Source: a virus
Lineage: Duplodnaviria > Heunggongvirae > Uroviricota > Caudoviricetes
DNA: 25,526 bases
Direction: 5' to 3' (one strand)
Virus record (IMG/VR): IMGVR_UViG_2571042636_000011
Under the pieces are notes generated by a model. That model searched no databases. It was not told where the DNA came from and saw only the letters and a list, made by a program, of their open reading frames with translations. Positions 4,006-13,623 of this stretch are shown piece after piece. The position numbers and the translations under genes were made by a program. Each line of letters opens with the position of its first letter. Positions within the stretch are counted from its first letter, which is position 1.

Positions 4006-4232
4006 TGGCTGATGCAATGGATCTCGTACAGCAGCGCGTTGAAGAAGAACGCCAGCGCCATATCCGTGCTGCCCGTGCCAAAACGCCGGGCGTGTCCCGC
4101 GTGCTTTGCATTGAGTGTGAAGCGCCAATTCCGCCAGCACGCCGCCGCGCCATTCCAGGTGTGCAGCTTTGCATTACCTGTCAGGAAATCGCAGAGCTGA
4201 AAGGCAAACATTACAACGGAGGTGCTGTATGA
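4005..4232 (+). CDS. TraR/DksA-family C4 zinc-finger protein (P2 orf82-like)
   Basis: 75 aa with CxxC...CxxC (CIECEAPIPPARRRAIPGVQLCITCQ), typical of phage and plasmid TraR/DksA-like proteins. AGGAG 7 nt upstream of ATG 4005. Stop TGA overlaps the dam start (ATGA at 4229..4232). Confidence 0.7.
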   Translation: MADAMDLVQQRVEEERQRHIRAARAKTPGVSRVLCIECEAPIPPARRRAIPGVQLCITCQEIAELKGKHYNGGAV

Positions 4233-5086
4233 GCACCATCCTGAAATGGGCGGGAAATAAAACCGCCGTAATGTCCGAACTGAAAAAACATCTTCCAGCT
4301 GGCCCGCGACTGGTTGAACCTTTCGCGGGTTCCTGTGCTGTGATGATGGAGACGGATTATCCCAGCTATCTGGTTGCGGATATTAATCCTGATTTAATCA
4401 ACCTCTATAAAAAGGTTGCCGCTGATTGTGAATCGTTTATATCTCGCGCCAGAGTTTTATTTAAGGAAGCAAACAGGGAGGTGGCTTATTACAACATAAG
4501 GCAGGAGTTTAATTACTCAACTGAAATTACTGATTTCATGAAAGCGGTATATTTCCTGTATCTCAATCGTCACGGTTACCGTGGGTTATGTCGCTATAAC
4601 AAGAGCGGGCATTTCAACATTCCCTACGGTAATTATAAAAATCCGTATTTCCCTGAAAAAGAAATTCGCGCATTTGCAGAGAAAGCCCAACGAGCAACGT
4701 TTATCTGCGCCAGCTTTGATGAAACGCTGGCGATGTTGAAGGCGGGGGATGTGGTGTATTGCGATCCGCCGTATGACGGTACGTTTTCCAGCTATCACAC
4801 TGATGGTTTCACTGAAGATGACCAGTATCACCTGGCATCCGTTCTTGAACATCGGTCATCAGAAGGACATCCGGTCATTGTTTCTAACAGTGACACATCC
4901 CTGATCCGTTCGCTGTATCGCAATTTTACTCACCACTACATCAAGGCAAAACGCAGCATCGGCGTAGCAGCTGGTGAGAGTAAATCTGCAACAGAAATCA
5001 TCGCTGTTTCTGGGGCGCGCTGCTGGGTGGGATTTGATCCTTCGCGTGGCGTGGATAGTTCTGCCGTGTACGGAGTACGTGCATGA
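4229..5086 (+). CDS. dam: DNA adenine (N6) methyltransferase, Dam family
   Basis: Start [11 protein letters not shown] (Dam motif I, KWAGGK-like) with GGAGG upstream of ATG 4229. Catalytic motif DPPY present ([10 protein letters not shown]). Length about 285 aa. Stop overlaps the start of the A gene (ATGA). Confidence 0.85.
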
Positions 5087-8226: not shown

Positions 8227-10086
8227 TTAGTGAGGGCTGGTTATTACGTAGTCGCTCTGGTCATCCTCTCCCAGCCTCTCAGGTATTAAATCGTTGAAGG
8301 AAATAGTATTACTCTTAGGTTTTTCTTCAATTGGAAGTTCAGCTACCCTTAATTTGAGCGGCATGGGGCAGACGATACCACTAAAAATACAGGTTCCTGT
8401 AGATAGCGTTGGAATCGACTCTTCAGTCAGTCGATCTATATATGATACTGATTTTTCAATTGCGTACAGATCATTCTGATTAATAAGGCGATGAATAAAA
8501 TAATTGTGTGCTTGGGATATGATTGTCGACGATATATCATTAGGGCGTTGACTGGAAATTGTGATAAAAACTCCAAATTTTCTCCCCTCCTTTATGATTT
8601 CCTCAAAAGTTTCCAGACGATAATCTCTCCAACTTTCCGTTTCCCGAAAAGAAGTATTAGACAAAATATTGTGGGCTTCATCTATAATGATGTGCAGTGT
8701 AGATTTCTCTGTAGACATTTTCTTCATATTGTAAGCCCACTTGGCTATCAAAAGAGGAAGCGTTTTTTTCATGGTTATATTAACCATATTTAGATTCACA
8801 ACCGTGAAATTATGTTCACCCCAAAAGTCAGACTGTCCGGAAGTATCAAATATTTTGGCTATATCTTTACGGTTAGCACTCATTCTATTTATAACTGGTG
8901 AAATATGTTCAGGGTTAGACTTGTTAGATAAATATTCCTGTATTAACTGTAAGTACATAAAGTCCAACAGTTCTTCAATCATATCAGTTTTAAATGAAAA
9001 ATTGCTTGCAAGACTGAATAGATAGGAGCGCTCAGTATCAGCTTCTGTATTGAAAATACTACCACCCCTCAATTTCCATTTATATGCAGTTGAATGATAC
9101 TCAAGATCAGATATAAGTTCTGGGTCATCTTTGAAAATTGGGCTAAGAAACTGATTTATAGTATCGCATTTGGGTTTGTCGCTACTAAAGAGATTTTGTC
9201 TGACTTTTTTCTTCAGGATATTGCGCATAAACTCAAGAGGATTATCAGCAGTCATCACTTTCTTGCGAAACTCAAGAACTCTCTTCAGGAAAGGTTTCTG
9301 TGTTTTGTCTGTTGCATCGGTTAGAACTGAGAGCATATCATGCTCAAGTAGAACCTCTCTGGGTAGAGGAAGTTTGTCACCATTTGCATGGTGCGTGTTG
9401 AGATTATAAACCGTCTTCTCGTCAGTAATACAGCGTGGGGCAGTATATTCTCCATTAAAGTCGAATAGAATAAATTTGCATCTTTCACTAAAGTGGTTGC
9501 CGAGAATATGTTTAACTTGGGCAATACCTGCTTTGTATAGCGCGGCTAGGGTATTTGACTTTCCGCTGCCTGTATTACCGAAAATGGCAATGTGGGAATT
9601 AATAAGACCATTGATTGGTAGTGCAATTTCAATATCTTCAAGATCTGTACGAGTAAACCTCATTACAGTTTCGTCTGCATCAGCTATCTGATGAACCGTC
9701 TGTATCATCTCTTCAGTTACCACGAAGACTTCATTGCCGATGAGAGGTAGTTCACGCGAACCACCAATGAAGCAACCAGTACGATCAATGTAACCCGTAA
9801 GAGTAGAGGTCAGGTATCGCCGATATCGCCAGGCATCACTGCCGCTCCCAGCGAGATGTTTTTCCTCAATGATTCGTTCCGCTTCAACCTTGCCGATCAG
9901 GCTCATGAAACCTTTTTTGATCTCAATGAAGCTACCCACTGATACATTTCTTAGAACTTTTCCCTGATAAAACAAGTCACTGAGATTTTTGTTTTTATCG
10001 ACCAAAATTGTCACAGCGCGTCCAGAAACCTCACAGACTTCGCCTATACGGAGCACCGCTTCCTCTTCAGTAAAATGCCTGCTCAT
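8227..10086 (-). CDS. herA: HerA-like ATPase (HAS-barrel plus RecA-like P-loop NTPase), predicted partner of the upstream SIR2-like protein
   Basis: About 619 aa from ATG 10086..10084, which overlaps the SIR2 stop (ATGA); GGGAGG upstream. Walker A AIFGNTGSGKSNT and Walker B LHIIIDEAHN. N-terminal beta-rich segment (RIGEVCEVSGRAVTILVDK...GSFIEIKKGFMSLIGKVEAERI) is consistent with a HerA HAS barrel. AT-rich codon usage unlike the phage core. Confidence 0.75.
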   Translation of the reverse strand: MSRHFTEEEAVLRIGEVCEVSGRAVTILVDKNKNLSDLFYQGKVLRNVSVGSFIEIKKGFMSLIGKVEAERIIEEKHLAGSGSDAWRYRRYLTSTLTGYIDRTGCFIGGSRELPLIGNEVFVVTEEMIQTVHQIADADETVMRFTRTDLEDIEIALPINGLINSHIAIFGNTGSGKSNTLAALYKAGIAQVKHILGNHFSERCKFILFDFNGEYTAPRCITDEKTVYNLNTHHANGDKLPLPREVLLEHDMLSVLTDATDKTQKPFLKRVLEFRKKVMTADNPLEFMRNILKKKVRQNLFSSDKPKCDTINQFLSPIFKDDPELISDLEYHSTAYKWKLRGGSIFNTEADTERSYLFSLASNFSFKTDMIEELLDFMYLQLIQEYLSNKSNPEHISPVINRMSANRKDIAKIFDTSGQSDFWGEHNFTVVNLNMVNITMKKTLPLLIAKWAYNMKKMSTEKSTLHIIIDEAHNILSNTSFRETESWRDYRLETFEEIIKEGRKFGVFITISSQRPNDISSTIISQAHNYFIHRLINQNDLYAIEKSVSYIDRLTEESIPTLSTGTCIFSGIVCPMPLKLRVAELPIEEKPKSNTISFNDLIPERLGEDDQSDYVITSPH

Positions 10087-11126
10087 CTCGAGCCTCCCAG
10101 ATAGCACGTGATAATGTTATTCATTACCGGAAAATCAACATTTCTTCCCGGCCGATAAATAATCTCTACGTTTGAGTAATCCCGAAATTTCTCCATAAAG
10201 CCGTTAACACTGGCCTCATCGAAAGCAAAGATCAGTAGCTTCAGGGTGGCGTTGCGCAGGGCTTTTTTAGTTATCGTTTCAATGTGCTCATCAGCAAACG
10301 AGAACCCAAAGACAATTAGTAAAGTTGCTTCTTTATCAAGCTCGTTGGAATAGGTTCTCAGTAAATCATAATAAACGTTCTGTAGTAGAGTCTCTTTAAA
10401 CTTCTCCTTACGTGGAAGAATAAGTGCATGAGCAAGTACCCATCCTTTCATTTCGGCTAGGGTGGGAAAGTCAAGCGGCTTAATATCTGCAATACGATAA
10501 ATGATTTTCCCTTTAGAATGCTGCCAAGAGAGCGAACCATGAAGTTTTATAAGGTTAACAGTAGGAAGCTCAACTTTATAATTATACAGATTTCCGGTTG
10601 CACTTACAGAATGATTAAAGCTACCCGCATCAAATTCCGCATCTCCCAAAATACTTGCTCTTCTATTGAATCCATCATTAAAAAGAATATTGTTATTACG
10701 TGTGGCAGCTTCTTCGATGAATAAATCATAATTAGTTGTAAAAACGTTAATACGCCTCGGAAGTAGGCCAGTTCGGCGGCGGGTCAGTATCTTTTCCAGT
10801 GAAGACATAAATGCATCATAATTTGCACGGGTACATTCCAAATCGGTGATCACCTGAGGTGCGAAGGGGGTGCCGTAGCCGCGCTTCAACATGCATTCAT
10901 GAGGTAGCCAAACATCTGACAAAAAGTCAGCTGCCATCCTTAAGTATTCATCTTCCTGTTCATCATTAATAAGCTGCTGAAGATCCGTTTCGATTGTCCC
11001 CAGTACTTTAATCGCTGGGAGGGATGCACCTGATCCGATGAGAAAGTTAATGTTAGCTGACTGAAATATCCGCTCTAAGTAGTCTCGGTCACTATCGTTA
11101 CCGTAGTATGCGCGCTTGACTGCCAT
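10083..11126 (-). CDS. SIR2-like (sirtuin-fold, predicted NAD+-consuming) defence effector protein
   Basis: About 347 aa from ATG 11126..11124 (AAGGA SD; the ORF track starts at TTG 11141). Gly-rich NAD-binding loop FLIGSGASLP, the TTNYD motif (VFTTNYDLFIEEA) and a candidate catalytic His in KLHGSLSW, as in defence-associated SIR2 domains. Coupled to the HerA-like gene. Confidence 0.75.
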   Translation of the reverse strand: MAVKRAYYGNDSDRDYLERIFQSANINFLIGSGASLPAIKVLGTIETDLQQLINDEQEDEYLRMAADFLSDVWLPHECMLKRGYGTPFAPQVITDLECTRANYDAFMSSLEKILTRRRTGLLPRRINVFTTNYDLFIEEAATRNNNILFNDGFNRRASILGDAEFDAGSFNHSVSATGNLYNYKVELPTVNLIKLHGSLSWQHSKGKIIYRIADIKPLDFPTLAEMKGWVLAHALILPRKEKFKETLLQNVYYDLLRTYSNELDKEATLLIVFGFSFADEHIETITKKALRNATLKLLIFAFDEASVNGFMEKFRDYSNVEIIYRPGRNVDFPVMNNIITCYLGGSR

Positions 11127-11426
11127 CTTATCCTTCCACAAAACATTGGATTAGTCTGTAATTTATTTAATCTTAACGCCGAGCTCAATACTTTAACATC
11201 ACTTCTTCTGGCGATTGCTATGAGCCCTTCTTGATAAAAAGTTCGATCGGGAAACTGATCCTTTATGCCACAAGTTTTCTAGCTATCCTCAAAAAATTGG
11301 TGTTAAAACTGTGCCAACAAAGTTGCAAGGTTCGCTTCTCGCTCACAGCGAACTTTCATCTTTGTAAACCCGTATGATTCGCTTTTCAGCAGTCATTCAG
11401 ATACGGATTTACGCTTCCCTTGGCAG

Positions 11427-11456
11427 CGCATGACTATGACGCATGAGATCGCATGA
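11427..11456. repeat. Three direct repeats of CGCATGA at 13- and 10-nt spacing
   Basis: cgcatgactatgacgcatgagatcgcatga. Copies start at 11427, 11440 and 11450, in the non-coding region about 100 bp left of the candidate cos sequence. Function unknown. Confidence 0.4.
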
Positions 11457-11551
11457 TCGTTTAAGGATCGTTTTTGCTGAAGTCAGCCAGAACTGGCGTG
11501 CTTTTGCTTATGTCATGCAGGTGCATGAAAACCACTACATAAAGCGGGCAG

Positions 11552-11570
11552 GCGTGGCGGGGATACGAGC
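11552..11570. other. Candidate cohesive-end (cos) site of the P2/186 type
   Basis: GGCGTGGCGGGGATACGAG followed by GC-rich CGCGCGC. The first 13 nt match the start of the 19-nt P2/186 cos overhang as I remember it (P2 GGCGAGGCGGGGAAAGCAC). It lies in the prophage position between the right-end accessory genes and Q. Identification is from memory and unverified. Confidence 0.3.
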
Positions 11571-11650
11571 GCGCGCAATGCTATGATCTGGCTCTTTCAA
11601 AACTGTTAACGGTTCTTCACATTCTTAAATGATCATGGTAGCTTAAGCAT

Positions 11651-11781
11651 GCACATGTAGGCAGATTTGTTGGTTGTGGTATCGCAATCAGTGATCTAAA
11701 TGTTAGATGGATTCGCCTTCTGACATCCTTGTAGCCATTCTTGGGCTGTCCTATGCTTTGCGTAAGAGTGCCTACATGTGC
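11651..11781 (+). ncRNA. msr-msd: Retron msr-msd non-coding RNA (template for msDNA), bounded by a1/a2 inverted repeats
   Basis: 13-bp inverted repeat GCACATGTAGGCA (11651..11663) and TGCCTACATGTGC (11769..11781) flanks about 105 nt, immediately upstream of the RT gene (starts 11817), which is the canonical a1-msr-msd-a2-RT arrangement. The 5' part (CATGTAGGCAGATTTGTTGGTTGTG..ATCGCAA.CAGTG) resembles an enterobacterial retron msr that I recall. Exact ends are approximate. Confidence 0.5.
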
Positions 11782-11816
11782 CTACCCTAACTGATAATCA
11801 AGGTTGATTTTTAGAT

Positions 11817-13574
11817 ATGGCACCCCTATCAATTTTAGAACGTTTACAAAACGCTGCTAACAGGCAAGATTTGGCTAGTATCTTGAATCTTAAAACTGCT
11901 TTTCTTACGGATGTTATTTATCGTTTAAAAGCTGAAACGCAGTATACACAATTTACTATCCCTAAAAAAAACGGAGCGCCGAGAGTCATATCAGCACCTA
12001 CCACTAAGCTCAAAGATATTCAACGTAGATTAGCTGATGTTTTATATTTATGTCGTGCAGAAATTTATAAAAAATATAATATTAATCCAGTTTTATCTCA
12101 TGGGTTTGAAAAAGAAAAGTCAATTATTACGAATGCTGAACGGCATAGAGGTAAAACGCTACTACTAAATATAGACCTTGAGGATTATTTTGATAGTTTT
12201 AATTTTGGACGTGTTAGAGGTTTTTTCTTATCAAACAGAGATTTTAGATTAAATAATACTGTTGCTACAACGATCGCACAAATTGCATGTTTTCAGAATG
12301 GACTTCCTCAAGGAAGCCCATGCTCTCCAATTATAAGTAACTTAATCAGTGGAATTCTTGATATAAGATTATCAAAGTTAGCAAAGAAATACGGATGCAA
12401 TTATTCACGGTATGCTGATGATCTTACATTTTCAACTAATAAAAAAACATTTCCAAAAGAGATTGCTGATGTTGGCGGAGAGTCTGTAACCCTAAGTCCA
12501 ACTTTAATTAAAGAGATTATAAAGGCTGGCTTTAAAATAAATGATAAAAAGACAAGGGTTTGTTATAAAACATCACGACAAGATGTTACTGGGTTGACTG
12601 TTAATAAAAAAGTGAATGTTGGCAAAGAATATGCAAAAGTAACGCGTGCCATGGCTCATTCTCTTTATAAAGATGGTTCTTTTGTTATTGTTACTGAATC
12701 AGGAAAGATTGAAAAAGGTACATGTGCTAAATTAGAAGGCCGTTTTGGATTTATTGACTCAATAGATAAATATAATAATTTAAAACTAAAGAACGCAAGA
12801 CAGTTGGAAAAGTACCAAAGTGTAAATCATGGATTAAACTACACTGCAAAATTGAATTCGAGAGAAAAAGCCTACAGTTATTTTCTATACTATAAAAATT
12901 TTCATGGAATGGAAATGCCAACAATACTCACTGAGGGTAAAACAGACCGTGTATATTTAAAGTGTGCTTTGAAGTCATTGGCGAATTCATATCCTTTATT
13001 GTTTAATTCTTCTGATGATAGCTCTAAAAATGAGTATCGTGTTAATTTTTTTAAAGCAACTGAAAAAACAAGCTATTTTCTTGACATTTCTGGCGGTGCT
13101 ACAGACTTCAAAAGATTTATATTAAGATACCAAGAACAAAAAAAGAGGTTCGAGAAATTTAAACCAAAGCACCCTGTTATTATGCTTCTTGATAATGACT
13201 CAGGCCCTAAAGATTTATTAAATCACTTAAAGGATAAAGTAAAAAATTGTCCAAATGATGTTGATACTATTCGTAAGGCAAGGTATACCCACATATTTGA
13301 CAATCTCTATTTGTTATTAACACCATTGCTTCCTGGAGGGAAAGAGTCTTGTATGGAGGATTTATTTGATAGCACGGTACTATCAACGGTGCTTGATGGA
13401 AAGACATTTAATAAATCTAATGATACGGATACAAAAACAGAATATGGTAAGCATGTGTTTTCAACAAAGGTTATAAAGGCAAATTGTAAAACAATTAGTT
13501 TTGAAAAGTTTAAAGTTATTTTTGATGGTATTGAGGAAATTATTGCAGATTATTCAAAGAGGTGCAAAGTATAA
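11817..13574 (+). CDS. ret: Retron-type reverse transcriptase with a C-terminal TOPRIM-like (OLD-family-like) domain, 585 aa
   Basis: RT motifs seen in the translation: motif A LLLNIDLEDYFDSF, motif B QGLPQGSPCSPIISNL, motif C YSRYADDLTFS (YADD). C-terminal about 250 aa contain a conserved Glu motif (ILTEGKTDRVYLK) and a DxD motif (MLLDNDSGP), consistent with a TOPRIM fold. Very AT-rich codon usage. Confidence 0.9.
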   Translation: MAPLSILERLQNAANRQDLASILNLKTAFLTDVIYRLKAETQYTQFTIPKKNGAPRVISAPTTKLKDIQRRLADVLYLCRAEIYKKYNINPVLSHGFEKEKSIITNAERHRGKTLLLNIDLEDYFDSFNFGRVRGFFLSNRDFRLNNTVATTIAQIACFQNGLPQGSPCSPIISNLISGILDIRLSKLAKKYGCNYSRYADDLTFSTNKKTFPKEIADVGGESVTLSPTLIKEIIKAGFKINDKKTRVCYKTSRQDVTGLTVNKKVNVGKEYAKVTRAMAHSLYKDGSFVIVTESGKIEKGTCAKLEGRFGFIDSIDKYNNLKLKNARQLEKYQSVNHGLNYTAKLNSREKAYSYFLYYKNFHGMEMPTILTEGKTDRVYLKCALKSLANSYPLLFNSSDDSSKNEYRVNFFKATEKTSYFLDISGGATDFKRFILRYQEQKKRFEKFKPKHPVIMLLDNDSGPKDLLNHLKDKVKNCPNDVDTIRKARYTHIFDNLYLLLTPLLPGGKESCMEDLFDSTVLSTVLDGKTFNKSNDTDTKTEYGKHVFSTKVIKANCKTISFEKFKVIFDGIEEIIADYSKRCKV

Positions 13575-13585
13575 CTGTAATCACA

Positions 13586-13607
13586 GGCAAAGAGTATGCT
13601 CTTTGCC
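13586..13607 (+). terminator. Hairpin terminator between the convergent RT and Q genes
   Basis: GGCAAAGAG-tatg-CTCTTTGCC, a perfect 9-bp stem, followed by TTGTATTGT. Located 12 nt after the RT stop and 17 nt before the Q stop on the other strand. Confidence 0.5.
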
Positions 13608-13623
13608 TTGTATTGTGGGACGA

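Follow-up and report, generated by a model that had tools for sequence, protein, structure and literature searches.

An intact Ec67/Eco2-family retron with an RT-TOPRIM fusion in a P2/186-like prophage of E. coli

A perfect 13-bp inverted repeat directly upstream of a reverse transcriptase (RT) gene raises the question of whether the two together form a retron and, if so, how closely it resembles Retron-Eco2 (Ec67). Both lie in a 25,526-nt stretch of viral DNA, the whole of which we call the window. They are carried by a P2/186-like prophage of E. coli that encodes a Dam methylase, the setting that a sequence-only reading of the window had named for Ec67. Our analysis showed the locus to be an intact single-gene retron of the Ec67/Eco2 anti-phage family, made up of an msr-msd RNA gene and an RT-TOPRIM fusion. 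We consider it very probable that this is a functional, self-contained, single-protein type I-C (Ec67/Eco2-family) anti-phage retron, carried as cargo between cos and the portal gene of the prophage.

The protein was examined through its gene and its two catalytic regions:

11817..13574, + strand: RT-TOPRIM fusion gene, 585 aa, product identical to RefSeq WP_023145585.1
12411..12422, + strand: RT catalytic motif YADD, residues 199-202, aligned with Ec67 YADD 199-202
12894..13571, + strand: TOPRIM nuclease domain, about residues 360-585, with E373, G374 and D377 (EGxxD), D459 and D461 (DxD) and E514

The RT motifs that had been picked out from the letters lie within a Pfam RVT_1 match to residues 48-262, and YADD is the catalytic motif of the Ec67 RT (PMC12916289). 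The best PDB, NCBIfam and PADLOC matches were all to retron RTs: the Retron Ec67 protein (9lm3/9i2f, E=5e-217, residues 4-579 on 4-580), NF038237 (retron_Ec67_fus; 722.7 bits, the cutoff being 450, with all 572 model positions covered) and RT-Toprim_I-C (PDLC02966; 740.6 bits), for which the best sub-models were the same as for Ec67. These scores agree with the RT-TOPRIM class of Ec67/Retron-Eco2 that had been proposed. Non-retron models fell below their cutoffs on the window RT (56 bits against 300 for group II, 41 against 390 for Drt2), placing it in the retron clade and not with group II. RefSeq already names the protein, and the databases recognise its family.

The C-terminal third had been described as carrying a conserved Glu and a DxD motif; the Glu is E373, within TEGKTD, and the DxD is D459-N-D461. 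The C-terminal 245 residues alone matched Ec67 residues 344-580 (E=1.4e-84), and the Ec67 C-terminal domain has a TOPRIM fold (PMC12405507). Pfam at E<=10 returned no TOPRIM or OLD match for the C-terminal domains of the window protein, of Ec67 or of the proteins from two related loci, L003 and L004; Pfam cannot assign the domain, in Ec67 included. A TOPRIM fold in the window protein is supported indirectly, by homology to the Ec67 domain of solved structure, to which it is 53% identical. Type I-C was defined by a C-terminal TOPRIM on the RT in which motif IV reads EGxxD and motif V reads DxD (Mestre et al. 2020), and the window protein has EGKTD at residues 373-377 and DND at 459-461, as in that definition. 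Subtype I-C2 is excluded because DxD and not DxE is present, which leaves I-C1, the type of Eco2 (PDB 9I2F, 9I2G, 9S1F, 9LM3), or I-C3. The Eco2 catalytic residues tested by mutation, E374, D378, D460, D462 and E515 (PMC12916289, PMC12405507), are all conserved as E373, D377, D459, D461 and E514, and by alignment the acidic catalytic residues of both RT and TOPRIM are complete in the window protein. A catalytic lysine has been named "K562" (PMC12405507); position 562 in native Ec67 numbering is Asp, and the conserved Lys of TEYGKH is present in the window protein.

The fused layout resembles that of retroviral RT-RNase H proteins, and in line with older speculation for Ec67 (PMC12916289) the TOPRIM domain might be not an effector but a maturation enzyme, similar to RNase H, that clears away the msd RNA template. 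Such a role is extremely unlikely: in Eco2, msDNA biogenesis does not involve the TOPRIM, defence is lost when the TOPRIM is mutated, and on its own the domain acts as a toxic RNase (PMC12916289, PMC12405507).

The RNA gene upstream of the fusion, with its flanking signals, was mapped as follows:

11650..11782, + strand: retron ncRNA (msr-msd), ~133 nt, from homology to the Ec67 ncRNA and covariance model R1; 5' end placed by analogy with Ec67 nt 1
11651..11663, + strand: a1 arm, GCACATGTAGGCA, the perfect 13-nt complement of 11769-11781
11769..11781, + strand: a2 arm, TGCCTACATGTGC, pairing with a1 at 13/13 positions, with compensatory changes in the family
11664, + strand: predicted branching (priming) guanosine, directly 3' of a1, context GGCA-G-ATTT as in Ec67, equivalent to rG15
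11669..11692, + strand: msr stem-loop, GTTGGTTGTG, loop GTAT, CGCAATCAGT, the counterpart of Ec67 rG20-rU42 (PMC12405507)
11702..11767, + strand: msd template, located through homology with Ec67; its reverse complement, 66 nt, gives the predicted msDNA, 5'-TCTTACGCAAAGCATAGGACAGCCCAAGAATGGCTACAAGGATGTCAGAAGGCGAATCCATCTAAC-3'
11616..11644, + strand: putative promoter, -35 TTCACA at 11616-11621, 17-nt spacer, extended -10 TGgTAGCTT at 11636-11644
13585..13608, + strand: terminator-like hairpin, AGGCAAAGAG-TATG-CTCTTTGCCT, 10 pairs then TGTATTGTGG (consensus scan), between the converging RT-TOPRIM and portal genes

The inverted repeat reported by the sequence-only reading proved exact: its arms are 100% complementary over 13 nt and 105 nt apart, and the RT-TOPRIM ORF starts 35 nt past a2. 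Taken alone, the repeat is only mildly unusual. Among windows simulated with a first-order Markov model, ~10% had one or more perfect 13-nt repeats of the same type, and the window itself has a second perfect 13-nt inverted repeat inside an AT-rich coding region. This chance rate, and the position of the repeat ~100 nt from cos, would suit a locus that is not a retron at all, in which a group II intron, DGR or other defence RT happens to follow a chance, cos-related or terminator repeat. The repeat is significant, however, because of its position, its homology to the Ec67 ncRNA, a unique 148-bit covariance-model match and family-wide covariation. Model R1, built in this analysis, scored 148.4 bits (E=7e-39) at this site, its sole match in the window, and of 80 homologous loci, drawn from many phyla and including non-phage contexts, about 76 had the modelled RNA upstream of their RT. 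The search with retron ncRNA covariance models that had been proposed was thus successful with our own model but not with Rfam, which gave no match for the whole window at gathering thresholds or for 11560-11860 at E<=10; this null says little because no Rfam model detected this ncRNA at either threshold.

Compensatory changes were seen at all 13 a1/a2 pairs (94.6% of cells paired in 81 sequences), and the modelled stems overall had 91% of cells paired, compared with 31-42% in slid controls, and double changes at 22 of 22 pairs. The pairing counts are somewhat inflated, since the alignment used for covariation had itself been fitted to R1. In five E. coli loci the arms differed by compensatory changes at 9 of 13 pairs, with no mismatches. 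The msr stem-loop was almost unchanged among the E. coli loci and showed compensatory changes at 9/9 modelled pairs across the family. The family model scores (723 bits for retron_Ec67_fus) and this covarying RNA refute a non-retron origin, to which we assign a negligible probability. Conservation of the inverted repeats in homologous loci, on which the earlier proposal of an msr-msd ncRNA with a1/a2 depended, was therefore found together with covariation, and homology to the Ec67 ncRNA and an invariant branching G point the same way.

The branching G, which is rG15 in Ec67 (PMC12405507), was invariant in 76/76 family ncRNAs, and the three positions of the msDNA start-site triplet G-A-G were conserved in 76, 76 and 75 of 76. 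As a control, the same mapping procedure was applied to L002, the true Ec67 locus (99.8% identical to the PDB chain). It recovered every published Ec67 landmark, returning the 67-nt msDNA, G15, G52 and dC at DenB sites 15, 17, 31 and 37. In the window it predicts an msDNA of 66 nt, whose termination point we infer, containing 16 dC residues. Judged from the aligned RNAs, the a1/a2 stem, the msr hairpin, the branching G and the msDNA start site have all been kept.

A TGnTAnnTT element stands at a constant distance from a1 in 4/4 E. coli family loci (alignment A1), suggesting that the sequence containing it may be the promoter of the retron transcript. When the region upstream of a1 was scanned for the sigma-70 consensus, no promoter was listed on the + strand, as only 8 of 12 consensus positions match in the proposed one. 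Downstream, 49 nt and a hairpin lie between the RT-TOPRIM stop codon and the converging portal gene; the hairpin is a putative terminator. No other gene intervenes, and with no separate effector the fusion is the only protein-coding gene of the retron.

The weak -10 hexamer and one substitution in the TOPRIM domain could be signs of an inactive relic, a retron that has lost msDNA or defence and is merely carried by the prophage. S513 is a metal-B ligand essential in Eco2, where its alanine substitution abolished defence (PMC12405507), and its counterpart in the window protein is Cys512. However, the position varies naturally, since L003 also has Cys and L005 has Asp. The 585-aa ORF is intact, the acidic catalytic residues are all present and the a1/a2 stem is perfect. 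The identical protein occurs on 510 public contigs, and its 90% cluster covers E. coli and Salmonella. A relic is very unlikely.

We compared the retron with known systems, beginning with Eco2, of which, by sequence comparison, the window RNA and protein are full-length homologues. Both loci have a single-gene layout with the ncRNA followed by the RT-TOPRIM fusion, and the proteins (585 aa in the window, 586 in Eco2) align end to end, with YADD and the TOPRIM E/D/DxD/E residues kept. They also share 13-nt a1/a2 arms 105 nt apart, the GGCA-G-AUUU branch context and msr hairpin, the msDNA 5' end (TCTTACGCA vs TCCTTCGCA), and a cos-proximal left junction with a cos-to-portal slot in a Dam-encoding 186-like prophage. 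In contrast, the window protein is only 57% identical to that of Eco2 (RT 63%, thumb/linker 48%, TOPRIM 53%), with a diverged trimer-contact loop that is 1 residue shorter and Cys512 for S513. The msd is 67% identical and the msr 83%, the predicted msDNA is 66 nt instead of 67, the msr loop is 1 nt longer, and neither the promoter region nor the terminator region is related in sequence to its Eco2 counterpart. On these identities and the msDNA length, the possibility that the window retron is Ec67 itself was rejected. The element had been thought to be that of Ec67 or a close relative; the relationship holds for the backbone, in which flanking prophage genes have roughly 90-99% DNA identity to the Ec67 prophage, but not for the retron.

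NCBI naming and PADLOC both put the L003 type (CP107720) and the L004 type (near dhaR) in the same family as the window retron. Their msr is closer to that of the window than the Ec67 msr is (GTGGTATCGCAATCAGTG is identical), and their a1/a2 arms show only compensatory differences from those of the window. Their proteins are 53-55% identical to the window protein, and they lie in a defence island or another prophage, whereas the window retron lies in the cos slot. The L004 type accounts for most of the ~530 diverged Ec67-family matches in 5,426 complete E. coli genomes. Retron-Eco1 (Ec86), of type II-A, is reported from the same site, cos to terminator, in a 186-related prophage (PMC6868368), and its RT domain is homologous to that of the window (E=6e-33). 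Unlike the window retron, it carries no TOPRIM fusion; its effector is a separate N-glycosidase, it assembles into filaments, and methylation of its msDNA is the trigger (PMC12916289). At the sequence level the window C-terminal domain did not match OLD-family, Gabija GajA, PARIS AriB TOPRIM or type I-B OLD (Eco8) effectors, from which the window protein also differs in having no ATPase domain. The I-C TOPRIM is a separate lineage (Mestre et al.), and the substrates differ, being RNA for the Eco2 TOPRIM and DNA for the OLD effector of Eco8 (PMC12916289).

The window retron is thus a diverged allele of the Ec67 family, for which family, RNA, structure and defence mechanism have been published. 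No mention of WP_023145585 was found in the literature, and the msd and protein N-terminus had no match in the retron census preprint supplements, a weak negative given their partial coverage. Evidence of earlier testing of this allele was likewise not found in the literature, which we also treat as a weak negative.

The left limit of the cargo slot was then located:

11551..11575, no strand assigned: cos-like sequence, GGCGTGGCGGGGATACGAGCGCGCG

We take this sequence to be cos, in keeping with the cohesive ends of P2/186. An identical cos-like 25-mer lies upstream of Ec67 in L002. The identification also leans on a statement in PMC6868368 that cites Dodd & Egan 1996. Sequence homologous to P2-like phages and the Ec67 prophage runs up to about 11577-11578, and the retron lies directly downstream of this cos-proximal junction, which is shared with Ec67, in a slot running from cos to the portal gene. 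The retron is acquired cargo, since its GC content is 31-33% compared with 51-62% in the phage genes. In a phage collection no record carried the window retron, and matches were confined to the portal gene and to 80-150 bp next to cos. A SIR2-HerA system lies on the opposite side of cos; it was rejected as part of the retron system because unrelated cargo is found there in other genomes with an identical retron. The identical retron protein is always in the same slot, and the slot across cos varies.

By homology to Eco2, the transcript would begin near 11650 and fold with a1 paired to a2. The RT would prime on the 2'-OH of G11664 and copy from 11767 back to about 11702, yielding a branched msDNA of ~66 nt. 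The msDNA and protein would form an oligomer with the active sites of the TOPRIM caged by the msDNA; the Eco2 oligomer is a 3:3 trimer with an msDNA cage over the TOPRIM (PMC12916289, PMC12405507). During infection, phage DNA endonucleases (DenB of T-even, A1 of T5-like phages) would nick the msDNA and degradation would follow. The freed TOPRIM RNase would nick tRNA acceptor stems and cut other RNAs, so that translation would halt and phage propagation would be blocked; in Eco2 the acceptor-stem nicks fall 6-7 nt from the CCA end. The earlier suggestion that the msDNA gates the nuclease matches what these structural papers of 2025-2026 showed for Eco2. The trimeric msDNA cage, DenB/A1 activation and tRNA acceptor-stem cleavage are established for Eco2 only (PMC12916289); the predicted msDNA production, oligomeric state, trigger and RNA targets of the window retron are extrapolated from Eco2, whose protein is 57% identical.

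A genuine type I-C retron could nevertheless differ from Eco2 in specificity, with another oligomeric architecture, other phage triggers or other RNA targets arising from the diverged msd, the trimer-contact loop and Cys512. Because the msd is only 67% identical, the three-way junction and trigger range may differ, and the only protein-protein trimer contact of Eco2 (residues 325-347) is diverged in the window protein, as is the thumb/linker. Eco2 blocks phages that have no DenB or A1 homologues, which implies that other triggers exist (PMC12916289), and the report of Ec67 and Ec86 at one site in 186-related prophages (PMC6868368) would fit a cos-to-portal slot that holds a series of retron alleles (Ec86, Ec67, window) with complementary ranges. 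On the other hand, the catalytic core and every RNA landmark are kept, DenB cuts 5' of dC in single-stranded DNA, so that with 16 dC in the predicted msDNA the same trigger is plausible, and no data point to another target. We hold a different specificity to be a tentative reading, somewhat doubtful on present evidence. It is likewise possible, though not probable, that the window allele is functionally distinct from Eco2 in trigger range or assembly and that exchangeable cos-to-portal retrons, together with the variable slot across cos, give each prophage a combinatorial defence repertoire.

As a discovery, an Ec67-family retron with a RefSeq-named protein adds little, and its value is modest. 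Its ncRNA is unannotated in genome records and escapes every Rfam model, whereas our small covariance model picks it up in loci across phyla. The window retron is also a possible alternative scaffold for retron-based DNA production. It is a natural Eco2 homologue at 57% identity in which the msr is conserved and the msd has diverged, and so lends itself to tests of how the msDNA cage and the trimer interface, part by part, set trigger specificity. For the biology of 186-like prophages, the locus shows two independent defence-cargo slots flanking cos.

The 585-aa ORF at 11817-13574 (+) starts 35 nt downstream of a perfect 13-nt inverted repeat, GCACATGTAGGCA (11651-11663) and TGCCTACATGTGC (11769-11781), with arms 105 nt apart, just as the sequence-only reading described. 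By itself this repeat is not strongly improbable. At least one perfect 13-nt repeat of this kind occurred in ~10% of simulated windows (first-order Markov), and the window contains a second, AGATTTATTAAAT and ATTTAATAAATCT (13211-13223 and 13406-13418; 182 nt apart), inside the TOPRIM coding region, which probably arose by chance at 31% GC. The case for a retron therefore rests on evidence beyond the repeat.

The RT motif YADD (residues 199-202), the conserved Glu (in TEGKTD) and the DxD motif (DND) in the C-terminal third, all noted previously, were present, and Pfam RVT_1 spans residues 48-262. The retron Ec67 protein (PDB 9LM3, 9I2F, 9I2G, 9S1F) aligned end to end with the window protein (residues 4-579 vs 4-580, E=5e-217). 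The next PDB matches were the retron RTs Ec86, Ec83 and Ec78, with group II intron and Drt2 RTs far behind. NCBIfam retron_Ec67_fus scored 722.7 bits (cutoff 450), compared to 56 bits for the group II model (cutoff 300), and PADLOC RT-Toprim_I-C scored 740.6 bits, its best two sub-models being those preferred by Ec67. The C-terminal 245 residues alone matched Ec67 residues 344-580 (E=1.4e-84). Pfam recognised no TOPRIM domain in either the window protein or Ec67, and the TOPRIM fold is accordingly assigned from the solved Ec67 structure, whose C-terminal domain is described as OLD/Gabija/PARIS-like (PMC12405507). The EGxxD and DxD motifs are those of the type I-C definition of Mestre et al. 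The full-length alignment, both family models and these motifs support the proposed RT-TOPRIM class (Ec67/Eco2 type). Subtype I-C2 was ruled out: I-C2 has DxE, the window protein DxD.

Mutation of E374, D378, D460, D462 or E515 in Retron-Eco2 (Ec67) abolishes RNase activity or defence; the equivalents E373, D377, D459, D461 and E514 are conserved in the window protein. At the site of the Eco2 metal-B ligand S513, reported essential for defence, the window protein has Cys512 (nt 13350-13352). This position is Cys in the window and in one other family lineage (L003), Ser in a second (L004) and Asp in a third (L005), and is naturally variable in the family. The Toprim section of PMC12405507 names a catalytic lysine "K562"; position 562 of native Ec67 is Asp, not Lys, and the paper may have taken this number from the OLD nuclease it used as a comparison.

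It had been suggested that the window might be the Ec67 element or a close relative. Identity with Ec67 was rejected: the window protein is 57% identical to the RT of the canonical Ec67 locus (L002, from an E. coli blood isolate), which is itself 99.8% identical to the PDB chain. A diverged Ec67-family allele fits the data. Domain by domain, the RT fingers and palm are 63% identical to Ec67, the thumb/linker 48% and the TOPRIM domain 53%, and the only protein-protein trimer contact of Eco2 (residues 325-347) has diverged. Two other E. coli lineages, L003 and L004, were 55% and 54% identical to the window protein, and the fourth, L005, 45%.

The retron locus was found at ≥99% identity in 14 of 5,426 complete E. 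coli genomes, and other Ec67-family alleles in ~530 of them. Most of these diverged matches resemble L004 (NZ_CP030337.1 944178-957485) in extent and identity; there the allele has dhaR and an ABC-three-component system as neighbours. L003 (NZ_CP107720.1) lies near a TIR-domain gene, and the surroundings of both look like defence islands. The exact window protein, RefSeq WP_023145585.1, is encoded by 510 contigs. At 90% it falls in a cluster of 886 proteins from Escherichia and Salmonella, of which those named by their source are mostly "retron Ec67 family RNA-directed DNA polymerase/endonuclease". No mention of WP_023145585 or of the window retron sequence was found in the papers and supplements searched.

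Alignment of the window with Ec67, L003 and L004 revealed an almost invariant msr, GGCAGATTTGTTGGTTGTG..ATCGCAA.CAGTG, a conserved stretch immediately 5' of a2, TGCGTAAGAGTGCC, and a diverged msd. Across five E. coli loci, 9 of 13 a1/a2 pairs showed compensatory double changes, with no mismatches. The sequence-only reading had called for a covariance-model search, and a model (R1) was built here with the a1/a2 and msr helices only. R1 gave one match in the window (11648-11785, 148 bits). Of 80 homologous loci, which represent Pseudomonadota, Bacillota, Campylobacterota, Acidobacteriota and other phyla, ~76 had a match on the RT strand whose end lies shortly before the RT gene. In the R1 alignment, 91% of cells were paired, compared to 31-42% with partners slid 1-3 columns; both-side changes occurred in 22 of 22 pairs, and the observed values were reached in 0 of 500 shuffles. 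Fitting this alignment to the model biases it somewhat towards structure, but the margin is wide. The G that follows a1 was invariant (76/76 family ncRNAs), and the three positions of the msDNA start-site triplet G-A-G were conserved in 76, 76 and 75 of 76. Lack of repeat conservation, named earlier as an argument against a retron, did not hold; together with Ec67 ncRNA homology, these data support an msr-msd ncRNA with a1/a2 arms.

Feature tables were available for three records (L002, L004 and L001, the record for the window's allele), and the ncRNA is annotated in none of them. In L002 (NZ_OZ547117.1, 5986-7926) RefSeq extends the Ec67 RT to 646 aa by placing its start 180 nt before the true Met, and the CDS consequently covers the entire msr-msd ncRNA.

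Published Ec67 landmarks are branch rG15, stem-loop rG20-rU42, termination rG52:dC67 and DenB cuts before dC15, 17, 31 and 37 (PMC12916289, PMC12405507). Applied to L002, they reproduced a 67-nt msDNA with C at exactly the four DenB positions, validating the mapping procedure. Transfer from Ec67 placed the following in the window:

11664 (+): predicted branch G
11669-11692 (+): msr hairpin
11702-11767 (+): msd template

The predicted window msDNA is 66 nt, with a termination point that we infer; msr and msd are 83% and 67% identical to those of Ec67. The predicted msDNA contains 16 dC residues and no GATC site; near its middle, a short self-complementary stretch (AGCC...GGCT) could form part of a hairpin or junction.

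Gene annotation bore out a P2/186-like element with a Dam methylase: integrase, CI, CII, Fil, Dam methylase, replication endonuclease A and DinI-like protein genes are followed by portal, terminase, capsid, lysis and tail genes.

4229-5086 (+): Dam-type DNA adenine methylase (PF02086), just upstream of replication gene A
8227-10107 (-): HerA, 626 aa (PADLOC PDLC04097, 885 bits)
10083-11141 (-): SIR2, 352 aa (PADLOC PDLC04080, 698 bits)
from 11551: cos-like sequence GGCGTGGCGGGGATACGAGCGCGCG, an identical 25-mer lying upstream of Ec67 in L002
13585-13608: hairpin between the converging RT-TOPRIM and portal genes

The original Ec67 element likewise has a Dam-type methylase gene directly before replication gene A. 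Homology to the L002 prophage and P2-like phages ends at ~11577, directly past the cos-like sequence, and the window retron therefore shares the left junction of Ec67 and occupies the matching cos-to-portal slot. To its right, the flank aligned poorly with L002. This position fits the report, cited in PMC6868368, that Ec67, like Ec86, takes the place of ~180 bp separating cos from the terminator of a packaging gene (Dodd & Egan 1996). GC content was 31-33% in the retron and 51-62% in the phage structural genes. An imperfect 28-nt inverted repeat (11441-11468 and 11621-11648; 75% complementary, 152 nt apart) brackets the cos-like sequence and may reflect terminase binding or chance.

The genes at 8227-11141 (-) constitute a SIR2-HerA defence pair against phages, located between the DinI-like gene and cos; with the retron, the prophage has one defence system on each side of cos. 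Among loci with an identical retron protein (L086-L093), the DinI-to-cos slot held SIR2-HerA, DUF8087, a HEPN_LA2681 protein, Mrr_cat + ASCH, or 372-aa and 260-aa proteins with no Pfam match. This slot is hypervariable, with the retron unchanged throughout; the retron and SIR2-HerA are independent cargo. Several of the slot genes are uncharacterised candidate defence genes.

In Eco2, the RT primes on the branching G to make msDNA, whose maturation does not need the TOPRIM domain; three RT-TOPRIM subunits are joined through their msDNAs, which meet in a DNA three-way junction and form the cage around the TOPRIM sites. DenB, an endonuclease of the phage, nicks msDNA before dC residues, decay follows, and T5 A1 is implicated through escaper mutations. 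Once uncaged, TOPRIM nicks tRNAs in their acceptor stems and also cuts other RNAs, and translation stops (PMC12916289, PMC12405507). The components and catalytic residues are present in the window retron. By analogy, its RT-TOPRIM and msDNA would assemble as in Eco2, msDNA nicking by a phage endonuclease would be the trigger, and tRNA acceptor stems and other RNAs would be the targets. The window retron could differ from Eco2 in specificity, given its diverged msd and trimer loop and its Cys512.

The original observation is confirmed. The retron interpretation is supported with one amendment: the window holds a diverged Ec67-family allele and not Ec67. The family is mechanistically solved and the window protein already correctly named in public annotation; what is new is one more family member.
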